A DNA stretch of 64,000 nt from Candidatus Dojkabacteria bacterium (GCA_030583685.1 CP129470.1:479007-543006); one strand, 5' to 3'; shown: positions 6,058 through 54,352, counted from the stretch's first letter. Notes: generated by a model from the sequence alone, not told the origin. Translations and numbers: made by a program.

Positions 6058-6990
6058 TTATGTTGTTAGTTCTTTTGCCATCGCTTCTACCGCAATCGCT
6101 GCTTCTGATCCAGCGGTAAGGAGTTGTGCAAATTTGTTCGAGGCGGTTGTGCTATCCCCTGCTGCATAGATACCGGGCACAGAGGTTTCTTGTTCTTCAG
6201 TGACGATAATATATCCCCCTTCATCGGTCTTTATTCCCAATGCATCGGTAAACACGGTGTTTGGCTCGTGTCCAATTTCAATAAATGCGCCCTGAACAGG
6301 AAGCGTTTTCAATTCGGGGTTGTTTGTGTGAATTTCGGTGAGGGCATCGGTTCCAACGAATTTAGTCACGCTTGTTTTGTAGTGAATGGTAATGGCAGGA
6401 TGCGACAGAAGTTTGTCAACCCAATATTGCTCTGCTCGAAGTTTGTCTCCACGAACAAGGAGGTGAATGTTAGGGCAAATATCTGCAAGATATAACGCTG
6501 CAGTCACTGCTGAGTCTCCACCACCAATGACGGCAACGTCTTTTTCTTTGTAAAAGAATCCGTCGCAGGTTGCGCAGTAAGTAACACCTTTTCCGTAAAA
6601 CTCCTGTTCTCCGGGAACGTGAAGCTTCTTTCTGACGACACCTATGGTTAACAGCACTTTCTTTGCATGAATTTTTGTTCCTTCGCGAGAATACAGGACG
6701 AAACGTTCTTCCTGCTTTTCAACCTTCTCGATTCTTTCGTATAACTCTTCGACACCCAATTTAATAGATTGTTGTTGGACTTTTTGCATCAATTCCATGC
6801 CGGTGATTTCCTCAAAGCCAGGATAGTTACCGATTATATGTGCCTCTGCCGTTTGACCTCCAAACATTTCCCCAATTATGAGTGTTTTTAAACCATATCG
6901 AGCTGCATAAATCGCGCCAGAATACCCCGCAAAGCCCATACCTACAATAACGATGTCGTATACTTTCTCCATAGCACGGTATTGTAGCAT
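6058..6990 (-). CDS. trxB: Thioredoxin-disulfide reductase.
   Basis: FAD GxGxxG at the N-terminus. Redox-active CATCDG. NADPH site GGGDSA. 310 aa. Confidence 0.9.
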   Translation of the reverse strand: MLQYRAMEKVYDIVIVGMGFAGYSGAIYAARYGLKTLIIGEMFGGQTAEAHIIGNYPGFEEITGMELMQKVQQQSIKLGVEELYERIEKVEKQEERFVLYSREGTKIHAKKVLLTIGVVRKKLHVPGEQEFYGKGVTYCATCDGFFYKEKDVAVIGGGDSAVTAALYLADICPNIHLLVRGDKLRAEQYWVDKLLSHPAITIHYKTSVTKFVGTDALTEIHTNNPELKTLPVQGAFIEIGHEPNTVFTDALGIKTDEGGYIIVTEEQETSVPGIYAAGDSTTASNKFAQLLTAGSEAAIAVEAMAKELTT

Positions 6991-7060
6991 CTCTTGAAAA
7001 AGGGAGCGCTGAATGGCGTGTATTATTCTTTAAGAATCTACGGTTTTTTACAGGAAATCG

Positions 7061-7068
7061 TGTATAAT
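7061..7068 (+). promoter_or_regulatory. Extended -10 box TGTATAAT, 8 nt upstream of the ftsK ATG (leaderless-type promoter).
   Basis: TGnTATAAT consensus. The same arrangement recurs at the ligase, uvrA, uvrB, uvrC, aspS, murB and PEGA gene starts. Confidence 0.45.
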
Positions 7069-7076
7069 GACGAGAT

Positions 7077-9398
7077 ATGGCGAAACGAGGTCGACCCGCA
7101 AAATCAAAAGAATTGACGATTAAAAGTAAAGAAACCCAAGCGTTTTTGGGGTTTGTGTTTGTTGCGGTTGGTGCCTCACTTTTTTTCAATAACTCGTTGC
7201 GTGGGGTTGTGCCGTTGTTTGTTCAGGCGAGCTTTGGGCAAACAACTTACGTTCTCGGCGCGATTGCGATAGTTATTGGATTGCGAATGATTAATGTAAA
7301 AACGCATATTACGAGCGACCGCTTTCTTGCAGGGTTACTGCTCTTGTTATTTGCGACACTTCCACTGTTTTCTGCAATTGCAGACAAAGGTGATACGTCT
7401 TTATCATATTCAGAAGCGATTCAAGCAAAGGGTGGTGGTTCCATTGGAGCAGCAATTCATCAGTGGTTACAAAGTATTTTAGGAAGACCAGCTGAAATCG
7501 GTGTATTGTGGGCAACGTTACTGTTGTCCGTCTCTGTTATTAGTGGCTTATCTTTGGAACAAGCGGGAGAGTTGTTAACCTCCTTACTCAATTTTATCGG
7601 AAGGCTTTTTTCTGCACTCTTCTCTGCGTTGACGGGAAAACCATCCCCCGCTTCTGCTGCTGAGCAAAAATTGGAGATCGTCAATAAAAGTACTCTCGGG
7701 AAGAAAGGCTTGGCCGATGATTCACGCGAATTAGATCTTGAAAACACATTAAACCCCCATATTAAAGAGTTAGATGTAGCGGAGGTAGAACTACCAGAAC
7801 TTGGTGCGGACGCAGGTCCAAAAAAACAAGGTGAGCCAAAGATTACCATGAGCTTCGGTTCCGATCTCCGAGGAGGTGGTGGCGAGAGCGGAGACAACGA
7901 CACCCTGCAAGTATCCGATCTTGAGCAGGAATTTCAGCGACGTTATGCTCCTCGTTTTTCAAAATGGAAACAGTTCCCGCTTTCTCTCCTGACCGCCCCA
8001 GAGGCTGATCCTGTTGAAGAAGGCGATTTAATTCAAAAAAGTAAGAAAATTGAAGAAACATTAGCGAGTTTTAAAATTCAGGCTAAGGTGGCGAAAGTGT
8101 ATGTTGGTCCCTCTGTTCTTCAGTTCGCACTAAATCTTGCGGTAGGAACGCAATTTTCGAGAGTTCAAGCACGAGCTCAAGATATTGGAATTGCCTTGTC
8201 AGCAGATAAGGTTCGTATCGAAACGATTGGGGGAACCTCTCTCGTTGGCGTTGAAGTCCCGCGTAAAATTGGTCGAATTGTTCGTGCAAGTGAACTCCTC
8301 TCTTCCTCAGAAATGTCTCGTGAAGTAAAAAAACTACCTCTCGCTATTGGTGCAGATATTCGTAATGAATTAACCGTTGTAGATTTAACCTCTATGCCTC
8401 ACCTGTTAGTTGCTGGTGCGACAGGAACCGGTAAATCGGCGGCAATCAATACGATACTTGTTGGCTTGTTGTCCAAATTTACGCCTGATGAGTTACGGCT
8501 TATTTTGGTCGATCCAAAGCAAGTGGAGATGACTTTGTACAACGACATTCCCTATCTTCTGACACCCGCAATTGATGATATGGCAAAAGTCGTTCCCGTT
8601 TTAGATTGGGCAATTGCAGAAATGATGAAACGTTTGGCACTATTTCGCGACAGTACAGTAAGAAACATCGATGAATTTAATAGCAAGTCAACATTTAAAA
8701 TCCCACACATTGTAATCGTCGTCGACGAAATGGCAGACTTGATTTTGCAGAAAAAAGGAGAAGTTGAGACAAAGATTGTTCGTTTGTCTCAGCTCGCTCG
8801 GGCTACCGGTATTCATCTGATTCTTGCAACACAGCGACCAAGCGTTGCCGTAATTACAGGGCTCATTAAGGCAAACATTCCTGCACGTATTTCACTTGCC
8901 GTTACCTCTGGAATAGATTCTCGCGTTATTATCGACCAACAAGGTGCGGAAACCTTGATTGGTAAAGGTGATATGTTACTCAAAACACCGGATAATTCCA
9001 AAATTAAGCGATTACAAGGTGCGTTTGTGAGTACTAAAGAAGTAAGCGAAGTGACGAATTTCATCAAAAAGCAAGCTTTGGAACTTGATCCTGACGGGGA
9101 TTGGTATATACCCGAAATAGAAAACTTTGCAGGTGCAAATGTTGCTACAGGTGATTTGGGTGACTCTGAGTCAGAAATTAGACAGGATCCGCTGTTTCGC
9201 AAAGCAGTTGAATTAGTAATTCAGCATCGCAAAGGATCTTCCTCCTCCCTGCAACGATACCTAAAAATTGGCTTTACTCGTGCCGCTCGATACATCGACT
9301 TAATGGAGCAAATTGGGGTTGTAGCGGCATCAGAAGGAAGTAAGCCCCGTGAAGTTTTAGTATCAGATATATCAGAAGTCGAAGCATTTGATAATTAA
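7077..9398 (+). CDS. ftsK: DNA translocase FtsK/SpoIIIE.
   Basis: N-terminal TM segments. Walker A GATGTGKS. Walker B VIVVDEMADL. C-terminal gamma winged-helix (SSSLQRYLKIGFTRAARYIDLME). Confidence 0.9.
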   Translation: MAKRGRPAKSKELTIKSKETQAFLGFVFVAVGASLFFNNSLRGVVPLFVQASFGQTTYVLGAIAIVIGLRMINVKTHITSDRFLAGLLLLLFATLPLFSAIADKGDTSLSYSEAIQAKGGGSIGAAIHQWLQSILGRPAEIGVLWATLLLSVSVISGLSLEQAGELLTSLLNFIGRLFSALFSALTGKPSPASAAEQKLEIVNKSTLGKKGLADDSRELDLENTLNPHIKELDVAEVELPELGADAGPKKQGEPKITMSFGSDLRGGGGESGDNDTLQVSDLEQEFQRRYAPRFSKWKQFPLSLLTAPEADPVEEGDLIQKSKKIEETLASFKIQAKVAKVYVGPSVLQFALNLAVGTQFSRVQARAQDIGIALSADKVRIETIGGTSLVGVEVPRKIGRIVRASELLSSSEMSREVKKLPLAIGADIRNELTVVDLTSMPHLLVAGATGTGKSAAINTILVGLLSKFTPDELRLILVDPKQVEMTLYNDIPYLLTPAIDDMAKVVPVLDWAIAEMMKRLALFRDSTVRNIDEFNSKSTFKIPHIVIVVDEMADLILQKKGEVETKIVRLSQLARATGIHLILATQRPSVAVITGLIKANIPARISLAVTSGIDSRVIIDQQGAETLIGKGDMLLKTPDNSKIKRLQGAFVSTKEVSEVTNFIKKQALELDPDGDWYIPEIENFAGANVATGDLGDSESEIRQDPLFRKAVELVIQHRKGSSSSLQRYLKIGFTRAARYIDLMEQIGVVAASEGSKPREVLVSDISEVEAFDN

Positions 9399-13169: not shown

Positions 13170-14332
13170 GCCCTGAGTTGTTCGATACAAAAGTTAACTT
13201 CTTCTTCTGTCGTGAGAAATGATGCAGAAATGCGAGTTGTTGGTCCATAACCAGCGTCAAGGTGAAGTGGTTCTGCACAATGAAATCCAGCGCGTACAGC
13301 AATTCCCTGTTCGTCAAGAAATGACGCGATGTCGTGAGGATGAATTGTTTTGTGTGAGAAGGAATATATAGGAAGATCGTGTGGTTTGTTGTCTCCAAGA
13401 AGTGAAATGTCTGAGAAATGTGACAGTTTTTGTTGAAGAAGAGACGAGATCTCCTTTTCGGCTTGTTGAATATGGGAGAACCCAAGCTCAGTGATAAAAG
13501 AAAGAGCAGCAGAGAGTCCAATAATGCCAGTCACATGGGGAGTGCCGGCTTCAAACGCTTCCTCCGAAGACTTAAAGGTTGTTTCTGTTGTTGAAACATG
13601 GGTAACACTACCTCCGCCCACTATCATCGGTTTTTGTCCTTGCAGGTACTTTTTCTTGGCAATCAGGACGCCGATTCCCTCTGGTCCATAGAGTTTATGA
13701 CCAGAAAACGCGAGAAAGTCTACCGGAGTTTCTGAAAGATTGAGCGGGATGTGTGCAATAGTTTGCGTTGCATCGAGAACGGTGATGCTCTCATTCTTTT
13801 CTGCGTAATCTGAGATTCGCTTCAATGAAAGTACTTGGCCGGTGACATTTGAGCCATGAGTAATCGCAAGGAGAGCCTTTCGAAGTGTGGGAAGTATGTC
13901 AAAAGAAAAAACTCCATTTTCAGTTTTGAGGAGTTGAATTTTTTTGTGAGGGAGTCGCTTCCAGGGGAGGAAATTTGAGTGGTGTTCAAGTGTTGTTGTG
14001 AGTATTGTGGAGAAATCAAGGTTGCGAACGAGATGTGCAGCAAGGTTAAGGGCTTCGGTTGCACTTTTGGTAAAAATAACAGCGTAGGTTTGTGAACTTG
14101 CGTGAACGAAAGAAAGAATCGCCTGTCTCGTGTTTTCAATCGCTTGCTGTGCCTCGAAACTGAGCGCGTGCGTACTTCTGCCTGGGTTACCTGTCCCTTG
14201 CTCGAGGTGTCGTATCATCGCGTTAATGACGGAACGTGGCTTTGGTGTGGTTGCTGAGTAATCAAAATAGGTTACGGGACGGGAAGCAATGTTGCGAGAA
14301 AAAAGGGGAAATTGTTCTCTCAAAGTATTCAT
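13148..14332 (-). CDS. sufS: Cysteine desulfurase (SufS/NifS class-V aminotransferase).
   Basis: PLP-lysine SGHKLYGPEGIGVL. Active-site VRAGFHCAEPL (the SufS RAGHHCA motif). 394 aa. Confidence 0.85.
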   Translation of the reverse strand: MNTLREQFPLFSRNIASRPVTYFDYSATTPKPRSVINAMIRHLEQGTGNPGRSTHALSFEAQQAIENTRQAILSFVHASSQTYAVIFTKSATEALNLAAHLVRNLDFSTILTTTLEHHSNFLPWKRLPHKKIQLLKTENGVFSFDILPTLRKALLAITHGSNVTGQVLSLKRISDYAEKNESITVLDATQTIAHIPLNLSETPVDFLAFSGHKLYGPEGIGVLIAKKKYLQGQKPMIVGGGSVTHVSTTETTFKSSEEAFEAGTPHVTGIIGLSAALSFITELGFSHIQQAEKEISSLLQQKLSHFSDISLLGDNKPHDLPIYSFSHKTIHPHDIASFLDEQGIAVRAGFHCAEPLHLDAGYGPTTRISASFLTTEEEVNFCIEQLRACLKKYQ

Positions 14333-21218: not shown

Positions 21219-21938
21219 ATGTCGGCCACTGATTCTCAAGTAAAGAAATTGCAACATGTTGTCGTTATTCCCGATGGCGATAGACGGTGGGCGAAGGCAA
21301 AAGGTCTTCCCCCGTGGGAAGGGCATCGACGTGGCGCAGACAATGTGCAGAATATGCTTGCTGCTTGCAAAGAACGAAATATTCCGTATCTAAGTATGTG
21401 GGGATTTTCCACGGAAAACTGGGATCGCAACCCAGAAGAAGTGTCACAGATGATGGACATGTTTCGCAGCTTCCTCAAAACGAAAAGTAAAATGATTCTC
21501 GATAACAAGATTCGTGTCCGCCATCTCGGTCGAAAGGATCGGTTACCTCAGGATTTGTTAGAGGGCATTCACGAACTAGAGCAAAAAACAGCGCATTTTA
21601 CCGAATGGAATTATCAGGTTCTGTTAGATTATGGTGGGCAAGATGAAATTGTACGTGCTACTAAAAAAGTTGTTGCTGCAGTACAAGCGGGAGAACTTTC
21701 AGCGAACGAGATAACCACTGATTCTTTTTACGACTATTTAGACACCGCAGGAATTCCAAACCCAGATTTTATTATTCGTACCTCAGGTGAACAGCGGCTT
21801 TCTGGCATCTTACCGTATCAAGCAGTATATGCAGAGTTGTTATTTGTTCCAGAAAACTTCCCAGATTTTACGAAAGAAAGAATGTTGCAAGTACTTGATG
21901 AATACGAGCACAGGACCAGAAGGTTTGGAGCGGGCTGA
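21219..21938 (+). CDS. uppS: Undecaprenyl-diphosphate synthase (cis-isoprenyl transferase).
   Basis: HVVVIPDGDRRWAK, SMWGFSTENWDR and RTSGEQRLSG motifs. Confidence 0.9.
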   Translation: MSATDSQVKKLQHVVVIPDGDRRWAKAKGLPPWEGHRRGADNVQNMLAACKERNIPYLSMWGFSTENWDRNPEEVSQMMDMFRSFLKTKSKMILDNKIRVRHLGRKDRLPQDLLEGIHELEQKTAHFTEWNYQVLLDYGGQDEIVRATKKVVAAVQAGELSANEITTDSFYDYLDTAGIPNPDFIIRTSGEQRLSGILPYQAVYAELLFVPENFPDFTKERMLQVLDEYEHRTRRFGAG

Positions 21939-50129: not shown

Positions 50130-50863
50130 ACCAAAAGAAACAAGCTTATTCCTGAAGCGATGACGATCAGTTGTAGAACTCTTTCTCGTAAGCGCGATGC
50201 GCCAAAATGATGGAGATCGGGGATTAAATCGGTACAAGCGATATACAAGAATCCGCCTGCAGTAACGGAAAGTGTGTAGAGGGAAAACTGGTCGAGATTG
50301 GCCGTAAGAATATATCCCGTGATTGCGCCAAGAAGTGCAAGTGCACCAGATAAAATACTGACCAGAAAAATTTTACGGAGAGCCCATTTCGCATGAAACA
50401 TTATACTGAAATCCGCGATCTCTTGGGGTATTTCGTGAAGTGCTACCGCAAGTGCAGTTGCCCACCCAAGTGATGGATTAACCAAGAAACTTCCGACGAT
50501 GAGCAGGCCGTCGAGAAAGTTGTGTGCGGAGTCCCCGAATACAGACATAACCGCTGCAGGGTGTCGTGATCGGCTTTCTTGTGGGTCGTGATGATGCCAA
50601 CGGAGAAATTGTTCGAGTCCATAAAACAATAAGATGCCTCCAATAATGAGGAGACTTGAAAAAGTTGTATTTTCTGTTTCTGCAAAAATTTCAGGTATCA
50701 AATGAAGGAGTGCATTTCCCAGTAGAGCTCCAATTGCGAAACTAACCAACCAATGAGTGCTTTTTGTGAGTGATTTTCCCGCGACTTTTGCGATAACCAC
50801 GATAAACACTGGAATTGAACCAACCAGTACAACGGCAACAAGTGATTGAAGAAATGGTGTCAT
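50126..50863 (-). CDS. zupT: ZIP-family divalent metal (zinc) transporter.
   Basis: HEIPQEIADFSIMF signature. 8 TM helices. His-rich loop HHHDPQESRSRH. Confidence 0.85.
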   Translation of the reverse strand: MTPFLQSLVAVVLVGSIPVFIVVIAKVAGKSLTKSTHWLVSFAIGALLGNALLHLIPEIFAETENTTFSSLLIIGGILLFYGLEQFLRWHHHDPQESRSRHPAAVMSVFGDSAHNFLDGLLIVGSFLVNPSLGWATALAVALHEIPQEIADFSIMFHAKWALRKIFLVSILSGALALLGAITGYILTANLDQFSLYTLSVTAGGFLYIACTDLIPDLHHFGASRLRERVLQLIVIASGISLFLLV

Positions 50864-50949
50864 AAGCAGTATGATAGCACAAAAAGGACAGTTCAGGTGA
50901 AGTTTGCGTTACTTTGTGCTATAATACACCTGTCTCGACCACACTTTCG

Positions 50950-51371
50950 GGGGTGATCGGCTTAGACGGTTGTTCGTTGAAAGAAGAAGCCAAGCGGGCT
51001 GATATCCCGTACTCCTATCAAAGCACATAAAGTGCCAAACAAACCCTTTCTGCAAAAATTGCTAACGCACTTAACAGCGTCGTTGCGGCTTTCAGCCGTC
51101 CCGCAGCTGCTTTGAACGTTATGCAAATTGCATAAGTCATTGCGACTTTCCTTAGTGTCCCTCCTTTGCCTGACAAGCGGACAATAAGGAGTAATAAAGT
51201 TCAGGCCGACGTATTCTCGAGCTCCTCTGTGAGAATACTGTTGTATACGTGAGGGCGAGTGTTACTTTTTTGCCTCGGTTTTAGGTGACACTTCGTATAT
51301 AATCAAGGCTGTCTTGGGAGAATCTTCTTTTAGAAAACAGCTGCACAGGGGTTCGATTCCCCTCACCTCCA
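50950..51371 (+). ncRNA. ssrA: tmRNA (ssrA).
   Basis: 5' GGGGGUGAUCGGCUUAGACGG. 3' T-arm GGGGUUCGAUUCCCC. Acceptor GGGGGUG/CACCUCC with a G3:U70 wobble (Ala identity). Discriminator A. Internal ORF with Ala-rich tag candidates. Extended -10 TGCTATAAT at 50917-50925. Confidence 0.85.
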
Positions 51372-51513
51372 TTTTGGAAATTTACGGTGCAACCGTAGAT
51401 TTTCAAAATAGAACAGAGAATCGAACCGTAGGTTCTCTTGCGAATTCCTTGCTTATGCGATTTTCGAATGAGCAATACAAAGCCCGATAAAGTTTCAATG
51501 TATCCGAAGTATT

Positions 51514-51533
51514 CCCCTCACCTCCACCAAAAA
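51514..51533 (+). repeat. Direct-repeat copy of the tmRNA 3' end (UUCCCCUCACCUCCA+CCA), 143 bp downstream of ssrA. It looks like an att-like integration scar.
   Basis: A 15-nt exact duplicate of 51356-51370, here followed by CCA. Confidence 0.55.
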
Positions 51534-51755
51534 TATCCCTACACTCGCTACAGAAAAAGGCACAGCCTTTGTTCTGTGACGCTCGCCGGAATATTTTTTG
51601 TGGAGAATACAGTAGGGATGTTTTTGGTGGAGATTGGTTGGCGGTTTGGGAACATGTTGTCATACAGCGTTCTCTGTCCTTGAATACAGCACAGGTTAAT
51701 TGCGGAGTAACTCCTCATTATACATAGGCAAGTACCGCTTTTGATATAATTAACT

Positions 51756-52472
51756 ATGCAGATAGAAGAGTCTCTTAAAGAGATAGTTGAGCTCGAGGCA
51801 GAGTGGAATCGAACAAAGTCAAGGCAAATATATACGAAATTGACTGCTAAGATTTTTGAAGTGGTTGAAAAGAACACTCTTGAAAAAGAGTTACTCGAAC
51901 ACTATTTCAGGATTCTTGATACGAAAAGTGCAAAATTAAAGTTGTCGAGACTCATGCGGAGACCAAAAGTGCAATTCACCCTTGAAGATCCACGATATGA
52001 TTTGAAGGTGACGGGAGTAGCGGATGTAGAAAGCGGAGTGTTGATTTTAGGGAATGAGATTGGCCAGCAGCTAAAACAGCAAGAAAGCTCTCTGGATTTT
52101 CATAAACAGGTCGCGATACTTCATGAACGTGGAGATGCCGTCATGCTTGAACTCGGAGGTGATGGTGCAATCGGGATTGAACTTCGAGTCATGTCATCTG
52201 GTGTACCGAGTATTTCGAAAAAAGAAGCAAAAATTTGCCGTTCCATCTCTCAAGAATATAGCCTGCGCGTTACGAACCCTACGGTTTTATACGGGGATCT
52301 TGGTTGTACACGAGACGATGAGACAAGGAAGATTATGGTTCAGATGAAAACTGGATATTATAAGGTTCGTTTTTTTATTCTAGAAATTGTTGGAAAGTTC
52401 ACGAAGTATGTTGCCATTATTGCTCCTACGGAAACAGTGGAGTTAAATCCACATATTGAAATGCTTGAATAG
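51756..52472 (+). CDS. Hypothetical 238-aa protein immediately downstream of the ssrA att-like scar.
   Basis: ORF only. No recognisable domain. Confidence 0.4.
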   Translation: MQIEESLKEIVELEAEWNRTKSRQIYTKLTAKIFEVVEKNTLEKELLEHYFRILDTKSAKLKLSRLMRRPKVQFTLEDPRYDLKVTGVADVESGVLILGNEIGQQLKQQESSLDFHKQVAILHERGDAVMLELGGDGAIGIELRVMSSGVPSISKKEAKICRSISQEYSLRVTNPTVLYGDLGCTRDDETRKIMVQMKTGYYKVRFFILEIVGKFTKYVAIIAPTETVELNPHIEMLE

Positions 52473-52682
52473 TGAGATAAGCGCATTCCTATGCAATAAT
52501 GAAAAATAACAGGGGAAGCAATCATTATTAGAGTTAATTAATACCAAACATGATGACAATAGAAGATGCAAAAGAACTGATAGACTACCTCGTATCTTCC
52601 GGAAAAAGAATAGCGAGCACGCGGGAAAAGTCTCTGATATTGGGGTAAGCTCATCAAAATGTAATTCCTAGATAATCTTCTT

Positions 52683-52784: not shown

Positions 52785-53993
52785 TTACTGGTATTTACTT
52801 GATTTCTTACTTTTAACCAATAATCCACTTATTACGATATATCCAAACGAGAGAAGAGCAGGTAGCCAAAACGCGTCAAAAACGGTAGTATTGTCTGCTA
52901 AAACTCCAAAGGAATAGGCAACAGGAACATACCAGATATTCTTGGCAAAACTAAGAATTGAGGTTGTTGTTGCACGATATTTACTTTCAATTCCGTGCTG
53001 CCAATCGGTATTAACCGCTATTTCCCCATAGGCGTGAATTATCCTCATAAAGAGCAGTGCAATGACAACAATACTCAGGGAGTGAGTTATCATGAGCAGT
53101 ATTCCACCAAGCATCGCGAAGGTGAGCTTTTGATACACAAGTACCGTAACTGGCTTCTTTTCTGCATACTGAACGCCGATTAAGAATGAAAGCATTTCAA
53201 AAAATGCAAAAATTCCAATAATGGTGAAAGAAAGACCTAACTCTTTTAATGTAATGAGAGCAAATTCTGAGACTAAGGTGTATGCGATAACAGTTGTCAG
53301 AGAAAAGAGTGCAATTGTTCTCAGGTGGGTATGCGTTGCTATTTTTTTGACTAATTTCAGTACATCGAAAGCGAGTAATTCCTGTTCTGAACTCGCTTGT
53401 GAGCTGCTTGCTCGTGGCAGTAAAAGCGCAAAGTAAACGGCAATTGTTGCGCTAACAACTGATGAAAACATCACTAAAACCATATTCGCATCTGCAACAA
53501 ATCCTGCAATGAGAACACCAACACCAAGCCCTATCTCTCTGCTCGAGGTAGCAAGAGACAGAACTTTTTGGAAATAATTTTGTTGTTGTTTTTCTTTCAG
53601 ATCGTCATAGATTAACGCCTCTAATGCACCTGACAAAAATGCGTCATGAATTCCCCAGAAAAGCATACCGATGACAAAACCAGTAAAATTCTGAAAAAGA
53701 AAGAAACATAAGAGTCCTGCTAAGAACGCTAATTTTCCTGCGATAACCACCACCTTTCTTCCAAATTTGTCTGCCAAAATTCCGCTCGGAATCTCCAATA
53801 GGACGATTGACACAGACCACACTCCCAAAACAATCGAGAGTTGCTTGTAGTCAATACCACTTTCGAGAAAGAAGATATTTTGAATCAACCAGAAGAAATT
53901 GAAATAATAGAAGAATTGAAGCAGGGAGTAAATAACCGAGGTCCTTCGTATTTCAGGAGGGAGAGAGGATAAGACTTTAAATTTTTGCATCAT
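52785..53993 (-). CDS. MFS-family transporter.
   Basis: 12 predicted TM helices. MFS loop motif GILADKFGRK. Confidence 0.75.
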   Translation of the reverse strand: MMQKFKVLSSLPPEIRRTSVIYSLLQFFYYFNFFWLIQNIFFLESGIDYKQLSIVLGVWSVSIVLLEIPSGILADKFGRKVVVIAGKLAFLAGLLCFFLFQNFTGFVIGMLFWGIHDAFLSGALEALIYDDLKEKQQQNYFQKVLSLATSSREIGLGVGVLIAGFVADANMVLVMFSSVVSATIAVYFALLLPRASSSQASSEQELLAFDVLKLVKKIATHTHLRTIALFSLTTVIAYTLVSEFALITLKELGLSFTIIGIFAFFEMLSFLIGVQYAEKKPVTVLVYQKLTFAMLGGILLMITHSLSIVVIALLFMRIIHAYGEIAVNTDWQHGIESKYRATTTSILSFAKNIWYVPVAYSFGVLADNTTVFDAFWLPALLSFGYIVISGLLVKSKKSSKYQ

Positions 53994-54352
53994 AGCGTAC
54001 TAAACCACTTTTGATAGTGAAAGAAAAGTCTTTGGACGTGGCGGTTTAAGTCAATAATAAGGTTATAGAAAAGAAAGGTGATGGTGGCTACTAGGAGAAA
54101 AAACGGTATTTGCGATACTTTTGTCATAGAAATGGAGATCATTAAGCCAATGAATACGTATTTTAATAGGAGCAGGATAGTGCGATTTCCGAGAGCTTTT
54201 GTATTACCCTTTTGATAAAGGATGCGACCAATCTTTTTATTACATTGTAATGCTGCAACAACGCAATAACAATAAAACCCTATGATATACAATCCTGATG
54301 GCAATATCGTTGTTGTGACCAGAAGAGTGCCAACAATAAATTTCATCCTCAC
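53990..54352 (-). CDS. Small hydrophobic membrane protein, hypothetical.
   Basis: ORF with 3-4 TM helices. Its stop overlaps the MFS gene start. Confidence 0.3.
   Translation of the reverse strand: MRMKFIVGTLLVTTTILPSGLYIIGFYCYCVVAALQCNKKIGRILYQKGNTKALGNRTILLLLKYVFIGLMISISMTKVSQIPFFLLVATITFLFYNLIIDLNRHVQRLFFHYQKWFSTL

Follow-up and report, generated by a model that had tools for sequence, protein, structure and literature searches.

Integration of mobile DNA into the gene for transfer-messenger RNA (tmRNA), with displacement of a fragment of the 3′ end, is a textbook phenomenon. In genomic islands at tRNA and tmRNA genes the element restores the gene and displaces its native 3′ fragment (PMC4383910, PMC7192596), and tandem arrays form generally at the att cores through re-use of either core (PMC7192596). 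The ssrA-specific genomic islands of Dehalococcoides are associated with a DsiB/CcrB-like large serine recombinase (LSR; McMurdie et al. 2011, PMC3146451), and the same paper discusses SCCmec/CcrAB integration at the 3′ end of rlmH (orfX) and cites the concept of the cis-mobilizable element (CIME) and of accretion at att sites. Here we describe the tmRNA gene, ssrA, in a 64,000-nucleotide stretch of a Candidatus Dojkabacteria genome (GCA_030583685.1, CP129470.1:479007-543006; hereafter the window, to which coordinates refer unless a related locus is named), where the end of the gene recurs a short distance downstream. We consider it probable that integration into the ssrA 3′ end left this duplication as an att-type direct repeat, and that it is an old, LSR-associated scar lying in a tandem array that still varies.

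The final 16 nt of ssrA, ATTCCCCTCACCTCCA, occur exactly twice, 155 nt apart from start to start (Table 1), the first copy being followed by TTTT and the second by CCA, with 139 bp in between. With up to two mismatches allowed these are the only two sites in the 64 kb (0.03 expected; none of 100 shuffles gave two matches), so that an exact repeat ending at the tmRNA discriminator base is far beyond chance and supports the integration reading. An earlier note, made from the sequence alone, had described an exact 15-nt repeat with CCA after copy 2 and a U-run after copy 1; the exactness and both flanks stand, but the repeat is 16 nt long, copy 2 lies at 51511-51526 and not some 7 nt higher at 51519-51533, and the spacer measures 139 bp in place of 143 bp. 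In the window the identity between copies begins with the ATT of TTCGATT; in two of the related loci introduced below (L278 and L213) it begins with CGATT.

The gene that carries the first copy matches Rfam RF00023 over the whole model (positions 1-374 of 374; 79 bits against a gathering score of 47, E = 5e-29), and the Rfam alignment gives an acceptor stem GGGGGUG/CACCUCC with the G3:U pair, the T-arm GGGGUUCGAUUCCCC and a discriminator A, all in agreement with the earlier identification of ssrA. ARAGORN, which had been proposed as a check, called no tmRNA, whether in the window or among 61 related loci; this is taken as a limitation of the tool in the Dojkabacteria clade and no argument against ssrA. 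As ARAGORN is blind to the gene here, we wrote a stem-based finder, which recovers the tRNA-like domain not only in the window but also in 11 other loci, drawn from 9 further genomes. Orthologues of the gene are 68-79% identical across the 7 more distant relatives compared. Logan assemblies from two other sequencing runs match the locus base for base wherever their contigs cover the region, and a third contig is 99.5% identical, which excludes an assembly artefact.

The 139-bp insert between the cores is non-coding, with homologous blocks in L287 and homology of its right part in L275 and L277. Directly 3′ of the tmRNA end stands a strong hairpin that is probably a replacement terminator or processing hairpin, and L287 has a hairpin of other sequence at the equivalent position. 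In a second hairpin lies GAATCGAACC, exactly the reverse complement of GGTTCGATTC in the tmRNA T-arm, and AGAGAATCGAAC of the same region is conserved in L287. The insert ends in a conserved right arm that abuts copy 2, within which the 17-mer GAGCAATACAAAGCCCG is identical in five genomes (the window, L273, L275, L277 and L287) and is accompanied, directly before the displaced repeat, by the block ...AATGTAGTCGAAGT/ATTCCCC. Over 51469-51577 the identity to L275 is 87.5%. Two other readings of the right arm were rejected: as a promoter it offers no convincing sigma-70 match, and as a small open reading frame (ORF) it conflicts with between-species indels that are not multiples of three. Copy 2 and its CCA lead into a structured trailer, T, in which the motif CTCCACCAAAAATATCCC occurs once in direct and twice in inverted orientation (51588-51605 and 51612-51632). 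T is also present at the ssrA loci of L273, L275 (twice), L277 and L276; its inner hairpin, whose minus-strand reading is picked up by a pattern scan, shows compensatory changes in L275, L276 and L279.

Ten further ssrA loci were gathered by anchoring on the neighbouring DUF4012 protein, with the conserved gene order UvrA-UvrC-PEGA-DUF4012-(ZIP)-ssrA-variable region-Mur ligases. Homology between genomes ends exactly at the 3′ end of ssrA and, between L274 and L275, resumes about 1-1.5 kb downstream. In this family of Dojkabacteria, the main variable region is bounded by the 3′ end of ssrA. A complete element occupies this boundary in L278, where ssrA (13841-14260 of that locus) is followed after 7.5 kb by the identical 16-nt core (18 nt with CG) at 21746-21761, and where a reverse-strand recombinase gene adjoins attL and is followed by helix-turn-helix and SocA_Panacea genes. 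The domains of this recombinase (Resolvase, E = 1.9e-30; Recombinase, E = 2.5e-10; a sub-threshold Zn-ribbon at 17.5 bits against a cut-off of 25.3) mark it as an LSR. An element of 7.5 kb flanked by the same repeat bears out the earlier claim of an integration scar; the tyrosine integrase that had been suggested along with it gives way to an LSR, the sole integrase seen at the site in this lineage. The recombinase frame (14028-15776 of L278, minus strand) crosses attL and reads about 78 codons antisense to ssrA before its stop, so that the C-terminus would differ between the integrated and the excised form.

Other occupants of the site are smaller. In L213 a 2.05-kb island coding for an EamA-type transporter and a GNAT acetyltransferase separates ssrA from a 17/18 copy of the core, CGATTCCCCTGACCTCCA; when this island is compared with the 139-bp insert, the core alone aligns. 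The left end of the insert matches that of the L278 element at 12 of 14 bases beyond the core, a likeness that is suggestive only, and a junction of core and ATGTTTGTA...TACAAAC is common to L273 and L278 (35/38 positions). In L277 and L275, CCA and a T hairpin come immediately after the functional ssrA; as judged by eye and not by a computed alignment, this hairpin has a likeness of about 85% to what follows copy 2 in the window. This junction makes copy 2 the probable ancestral end, as the earlier note had claimed of the CCA-bearing copy. Considered as candidates for an uninterrupted site, both loci have ssrA, CCA and T contiguous, yet both have, about 245 bp further on and behind the conserved arm (GAGCAATACAAAGCCCG...GTCGAAGT), a second copy that is full in L275 and truncated in L277. 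The two hairpin trailers of L275 share only 19 nt (core and CCA). The layout of the window recurs in L287 as ssrA, hairpin, AGAGAATCGAAC, conserved arm, copy 2 and T hairpin. Partial second copies are present in almost every relative examined, lying about 200 nt downstream of ssrA in L279 and L285, which have the flank GAGGTGACCG of the second copy in common; in L274 no second copy was found within 8.7 kb. In L276 (GCA_020853235.1, 13425-13690) T, spacer, right arm and a partial copy lie inverted beside a NUDIX gene with no ssrA adjacent, and the outer junction GACCTAGGG/TCCACCA resembles GGCCTGGG/TCCACCA, the right junction of a segment in L273 described next; this arrangement may have arisen by inversion, one breakpoint lying at the att site.

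Units in tandem occur in L275 and again in L273, a Logan contig 97-99% identical to the window with the same ssrA, the same copy 2 and a 100% identical insert. There copy 2 continues into ATGTTTGTAG... and a segment of 983 bp whose inositol-monophosphatase-family gene is intact and which ends ...CCTGGG-TCCA-CCAAAAATATCCC, CCAAAAATATCCC being the sequence that follows copy 2 in the window. The breakpoint between presence and absence of the segment falls exactly at TCCA/CCA of copy 2, and a third strain, L004, shows the window state without the 983 bp. Divergence between the window and L273 is patchy, at less than 1% in the flanking genes, zero in 51312-51526, 5.7% in the ssrA body and 7.3% in the 238-aa ORF downstream. 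The ssrA body at 51012-51311 (tag and pseudoknot region) accounts for 17 differences, including two tag codons (N to K, I to L), a pattern that suggests import of a diverged ssrA segment by recombination.

The repeat, the layouts of the relatives, the LSR element of L278 and the conservation are direct observations; the direction of each event and the position of the crossover are what we infer. On our proposal, the functional ssrA would now end in element-derived sequence (copy 1, TTTT and a new hairpin), and the original end, made up of copy 2, the encoded CCA and the native hairpin trailer of about 110 nt, would have been displaced downstream. The enzyme acting in this lineage was most likely an LSR, as in the Dehalococcoides ssrA islands and in SCCmec, and no gene for it lies in the window. 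The insert appears to keep both element ends, the left hairpin and the conserved right arm, within only 139 bp, which would make it a non-autonomous mini-element or an internally deleted remnant that is either maintained or repeatedly renewed. Present-day mobility is likewise putative: the array may still be active in the population, as the 983-bp segment at the end of copy 2 in a conspecific strain would suggest. If so, a circular junction would read right arm-core-TTTTGGAAATTT, and an empty site would have ssrA followed directly by CCAAAAATATCCC.

Several observations weigh against this proposal. A recombinase is absent from the 64-kb window, where tblastn with the L278 LSR gave only an artefact from antisense ssrA; none of the best 120 LSR homologues lies on the 888,748-bp contig of this genome; and no matching attP was found in IMG/VR. 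In L277 and L275, T lies between the two copies and not after copy 2, so that native and element-derived origin cannot be assigned unambiguously to every block. The junctions of the 983-bp segment share only TCCA, which also fits a microhomology deletion. Finally, the insert and copy 2 do not behave as decaying junk and are conserved at the level of the tmRNA: the block from the right arm through copy 2 (spR to c2) is 0.69-0.77 identical to relatives, against 0.76-0.79 for the tmRNA itself, at a distance where synonymous sites are saturated (pS 0.74-0.81), and in L285, whose ssrA has a different T-arm, GAGTCCCAC, the second copy CGAGTCCCAC co-varies with it.

Being shared with L287 despite the saturated synonymous sites, the insert appears to be old. 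The earlier note had described an element mostly lost or reduced to a minimal remnant; a mini-element or remnant it may well be, but not a recently decayed one, since L287 has the same layout with homologous blocks. The same note had held that relatives with the same spacer and no element would indicate a lineage-specific duplication, and what we find goes half of the way, given the layout of L287, the widespread partial copies and the co-variation in L285. The persistence of such short units may have one of three explanations: renewal by repeated integration or gene conversion, horizontal spread as non-autonomous mini-elements, or selection, say of a decoy att site or of a portion of the pre-tmRNA trailer.

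Searches beyond these loci place the recombinase in a wider setting. Homologues of the L278 recombinase are common in Patescibacteria, and three unrelated loci with the same tmRNA 3′ end (L058, L065 and L106) also have an adjoining LSR gene. On a 163,957-bp Logan contig we noted a recombinase 49% identical to that of L278 (P0039); this contig may come from another strain of the L274 species (DUF4012 cluster member P0031) that carries an occupied ssrA site. Among viral genomes in IMG/VR, the L278 recombinase protein found no relative, the 17-mer of the right arm gave 3 chance hits, and the attL junction, the right arm with core and the core with ATGTTTGTA gave zero each. The 22-nt tmRNA 3′ end proved so widespread in a scan of genome contigs, being shared by tmRNAs and some tRNAs of many unrelated phyla, that the scan returned no relatives, and its matches in viral contigs are unrelated tmRNAs of phages and prophages.

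If copy 2 and its conserved flank were kept for a function of their own, they would form a module selected throughout the Dojkabacteria lineage and co-evolving with the tmRNA T-arm, and not a passive scar, acting either as a decoy or landing-pad att site that spares the essential ssrA from incoming elements (LSR elements, single-gene segments) or as a structured 3′ trailer of the pre-tmRNA that pairs with the tRNA-like domain and controls 3′ maturation. The tmRNA-like conservation of the spR-to-c2 block, the perfect 17-mer in five genomes, the partial second copies 100-250 nt downstream of ssrA in L275, L277, L279, L285 and L287, the L285 copy that tracks its own T-arm behind a flank common with L279, and the insertion of the L273 segment at copy 2 instead of ssrA all speak for such a module, as do the anti-acceptor/CCA repeats of T, the anti-T-loop GAATCGAACC of the insert and the conservation of trailer segments complementary to the tmRNA 3′ domain. 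However, L277, L279, L285 and L287 have lost some or all of the 3′ half of copy 2 and of its CCA, and the second copy is missing from the 8.7 kb searched in L274, so no single sequence is universally kept; re-integration of elements in each lineage would in any case make the attL and attR cores co-vary; and terminator-like hairpins stand upstream of the complementary segments, which may therefore not be transcribed with ssrA. We regard selection for such a module as possible but rather unlikely. Quite unlikely, in our estimate, is a local tandem duplication or replication slippage of the ancestral ssrA 3′ region with later indels and no mobile element, even though L275 resembles two tandem core-CCA-hairpin-spacer units, close strains share an unchanged spacer and the window holds no integrase. 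Such a duplication sits poorly with the recombinase element of L278 and the 2-kb island of L213, which are bounded by the same core, and with the two trailers of L275, too little alike to be recent duplicates; the duplicate moreover spans the T-loop to the discriminator base, which is the att geometry of ssrA islands (PMC3146451).

A further candidate is the trailer itself, as the roughly 110-nt T could be an element of the type of a miniature inverted-repeat transposable element, with TCCACCAA...TTGGTGGA as its inverted ends, which inserts at the TCCA of the tmRNA end and leaves the duplication as a by-product. Its 21-nt terminal inverted repeats are 95% complementary, L275 has two different T elements, and the homologue in L276 is detached from ssrA in the opposite orientation; but there the whole unit of T, spacer, right arm and copy 2 is inverted together, which argues for an inversion of the locus and not for transposition of T alone, T-like sequences occur only at ssrA-associated positions in 2.7 Mb of loci, and the inner hairpin with its flanks is also found in T-like trailers of L279 and L284 that have no inverted ends. 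Transposition of T is in our view very improbable. Nor was T, with inverted ends that we take to be unlike the attC R″/R′ consensus, adopted as an attC-like site, or the 983-bp segment as an integron cassette, as there is no array of further sites of this kind behind it. Another reading makes the stretch of 155 nt from the T-loop to copy 2 a group I-type intron in the T-loop, with copy 2, which carries CCA, as the real 3′ exon. It is too short for a group I intron, introns do not duplicate their 3′ exon, copy 1 already completes the gene in a full-length Rfam match, and no intron family matches at E ≤ 1 in 50800-51800. Group I introns do exist in the T-loop of tmRNA and can hide its 3′ exon (PMC13011429), but with a gene that is complete without splicing and no match to an intron family this reading is rejected as having almost no likelihood here.

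Among the described systems, SCCmec shares with this locus an LSR, composite elements in tandem and, where its conserved single-copy target gene ends 3′, a short direct repeat; it differs in its protein-coding target, its two recombinases acting together and its different host phylum. CIMEs are known from Streptococcus ICESt1/CIME, are kilobases long and carry genes. Like a CIME, the insert is flanked by attL and attR, lacks recombination and transfer genes and stands in tandem with other units, whereas it is non-coding, measures 139 bp and has only a putative mobility in trans. The Dehalococcoides islands share with L278 a serine recombinase gene on the reverse strand adjoining attL, with our locus a conserved motif right upstream of each displaced repeat and tandem arrays, and with the window unit the occurrence of units without integration genes (PMC3146451). 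In contrast to them, the host here belongs to another phylum (Patescibacteria, Candidatus Dojkabacteria), nothing in L278 was recognised as a DsiA, RecF, ParB or Mom module, the window unit has only 139 bp with the LSR gene absent from the window, and copy and flank are conserved across saturated divergence, which PMC3146451 does not describe. Islands of the Islander/TIGER type have, as here, an intact gene at one end and a displaced 3′ fragment in direct orientation at the other (PMC4383910, PMC7192596); they mostly use tyrosine integrases, and calling them needs an integrase gene and at least 2 kb (PMC7192596). An integrase between the copies is present in L278 and absent in the window, where a unit of 139 bp without it would not be reported by pipelines of this kind.

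The remaining features of the locus are listed in Table 1. The tag reading frame agrees with the earlier reading ...AALNVMQIA*; it is long (27 aa) with a C-terminal end -QIA, GCA being the probable resume codon as judged from the sequence, and frame and stop are kept in L273, L213 and L275, the tags of relatives ending ...QLA, ...FSYV and ...SLV. In the promoter region of ssrA, L273 and L213 retain the block TATAATAC. Upstream of ssrA and downstream of the ZIP transporter gene (50886-50917 in the window), L273 has an extra 1.48 kb (6700-8175 of that contig) encoding a 458-aa product with no Pfam hit. A promoter-like block stands at either end of this segment, and the two, GTGGTATAATACCTGT and GTGCTATAATACACCTGT, are similar; the difference may stem from recombination between duplicate copies of the ssrA promoter. 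The sole tRNA gene in the window is a tRNA-Ser (GCT) at 1084-1174.

The variable region continues with a gene for a 238-aa protein (WKZ23618.1, on the same 888,748-bp contig of the source metagenome-assembled genome as UvrA, WKZ23613.1), which the earlier note had described as a hypothetical orphan with no recognisable domain. The ORF exists and the protein itself has no direct Pfam or PHROG hit, but it is no orphan, given its remote homologues and fold matches. Compared with L273 it is a real gene under purifying selection (pN/pS 0.16), and its pS of 0.21, against 0.01-0.025 in neighbouring genes, is a 10-20-fold higher synonymous divergence and indicates an allele with a different history. 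A word-indexed search found 1 homologue and an exhaustive HMMER search 17 more (25-37% identity among those aligned); within the 16 aligned family sequences, the window protein included, there are weak matches to DUF6386 in 7 (best E = 6.6e-5) and to DUF4241 in 3 (best E = 2.8e-4). The AlphaFold2 model (pLDDT 86.4) has a predicted ComJ/CgnJ-like fold, Foldseek matching it to CgnJ (6i86; E = 3e-7, target TM-score 0.69) and to ComJ, the inhibitor of the nuclease NucA (4mqd; E = 1e-6, target TM-score 0.60). This ORF also contains inverted matches to the T-arm, which were set aside as chance, about 0.3 such pairs being expected in the region by our estimate. Downstream, both the window and L273 carry a remnant of an inositol-monophosphatase-family gene, whose translation breaks after about 32 codons and which is a further sign of regional turnover. 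A 120-aa ORF with no Pfam hit at 53990-54352 appears to be the remnant of a UbiA-family gene: the corresponding stretch of L273 (12236-13021) is 414 bp longer and yields a UbiA product of 261 aa, and the two alignment blocks have 14 bp of the window in common, suggesting truncation by a microhomology deletion.

Table 1. Features of the ssrA locus, in window coordinates
Feature	Position	Strand	Basis
Extended -10-like promoter element TGCTATAAT upstream of ssrA (putative)	50917..50925	+	Inferred from sequence
ssrA, mature 5′ end to discriminator A	50949..51371	+	Rfam hit 50949-51374; CCA not encoded
Tag reading frame, 27 codons, probable resume codon GCA, stop TAA; AKIANALNSVVAAFSRPAAALNVMQIA*	51052..51135	+	Sequence
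Core copy 1 (attL side): last 3 nt of T-loop, 3′ T-stem, 3′ acceptor strand, discriminator	51356..51371	+	Exact 16-nt repeat
Strong hairpin directly 3′ of tmRNA end	51368..51411	+	Fold of 51366-51440: -30.4 kcal/mol, z = -6.8
139-bp insert between cores: putative mini-element or remnant with both element ends	51372..51510	+	Comparison with relatives
Second hairpin, containing GAATCGAACC	51415..51438	+	Folding and sequence
Conserved right arm of insert (GAGCAATACAAAGCCCGATAA...GAAGT), abutting copy 2 upstream	51470..51510	+	Comparison
Core copy 2 (attR side, 51511-51526) with encoded CCA (51527-51529): probable displaced ancestral ssrA 3′ end	51511..51529	+	Repeat and relatives
Probable ancestral ssrA trailer T, ~110 nt: ~20-bp outer stem (51522-51542 with 51612-51632) around two hairpins	51522..51632	+	Inverted repeats, fold z = -5.5
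Terminator-like hairpin inside T (ACAGAAAAAGGC-ACA-GCCTTTGTTCTGT)	51550..51578	+	Conserved position
238-aa accessory gene, sparse ComJ/CgnJ-like (DUF4241/DUF6386-related) family, variable region	51756..52472	+	Homologues and fold
Truncated N-terminal remnant, inositol-monophosphatase-family gene	52550..52645	+	BLAST, 71.6% identity to intact L273 gene

The serine-recombinase version of ssrA integration, with its tandem arrays, is already known from Dehalococcoides. What is new here is a clear example in Patescibacteria, whose genomes are tiny and have few characterised mobile elements. Between the att cores of these bacteria sit units of 139-245 bp or a single 983-bp gene, which pipelines that need an integrase and at least 2 kb miss. 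The oddity of the locus, for which we have no explanation, is that an integration footprint is conserved across distant relatives instead of decaying. If selection lies behind the tmRNA-like conservation of the scar and the co-variation with the T-arm, these would point to a new function, on the host side or at the level of the RNA, at an att site.

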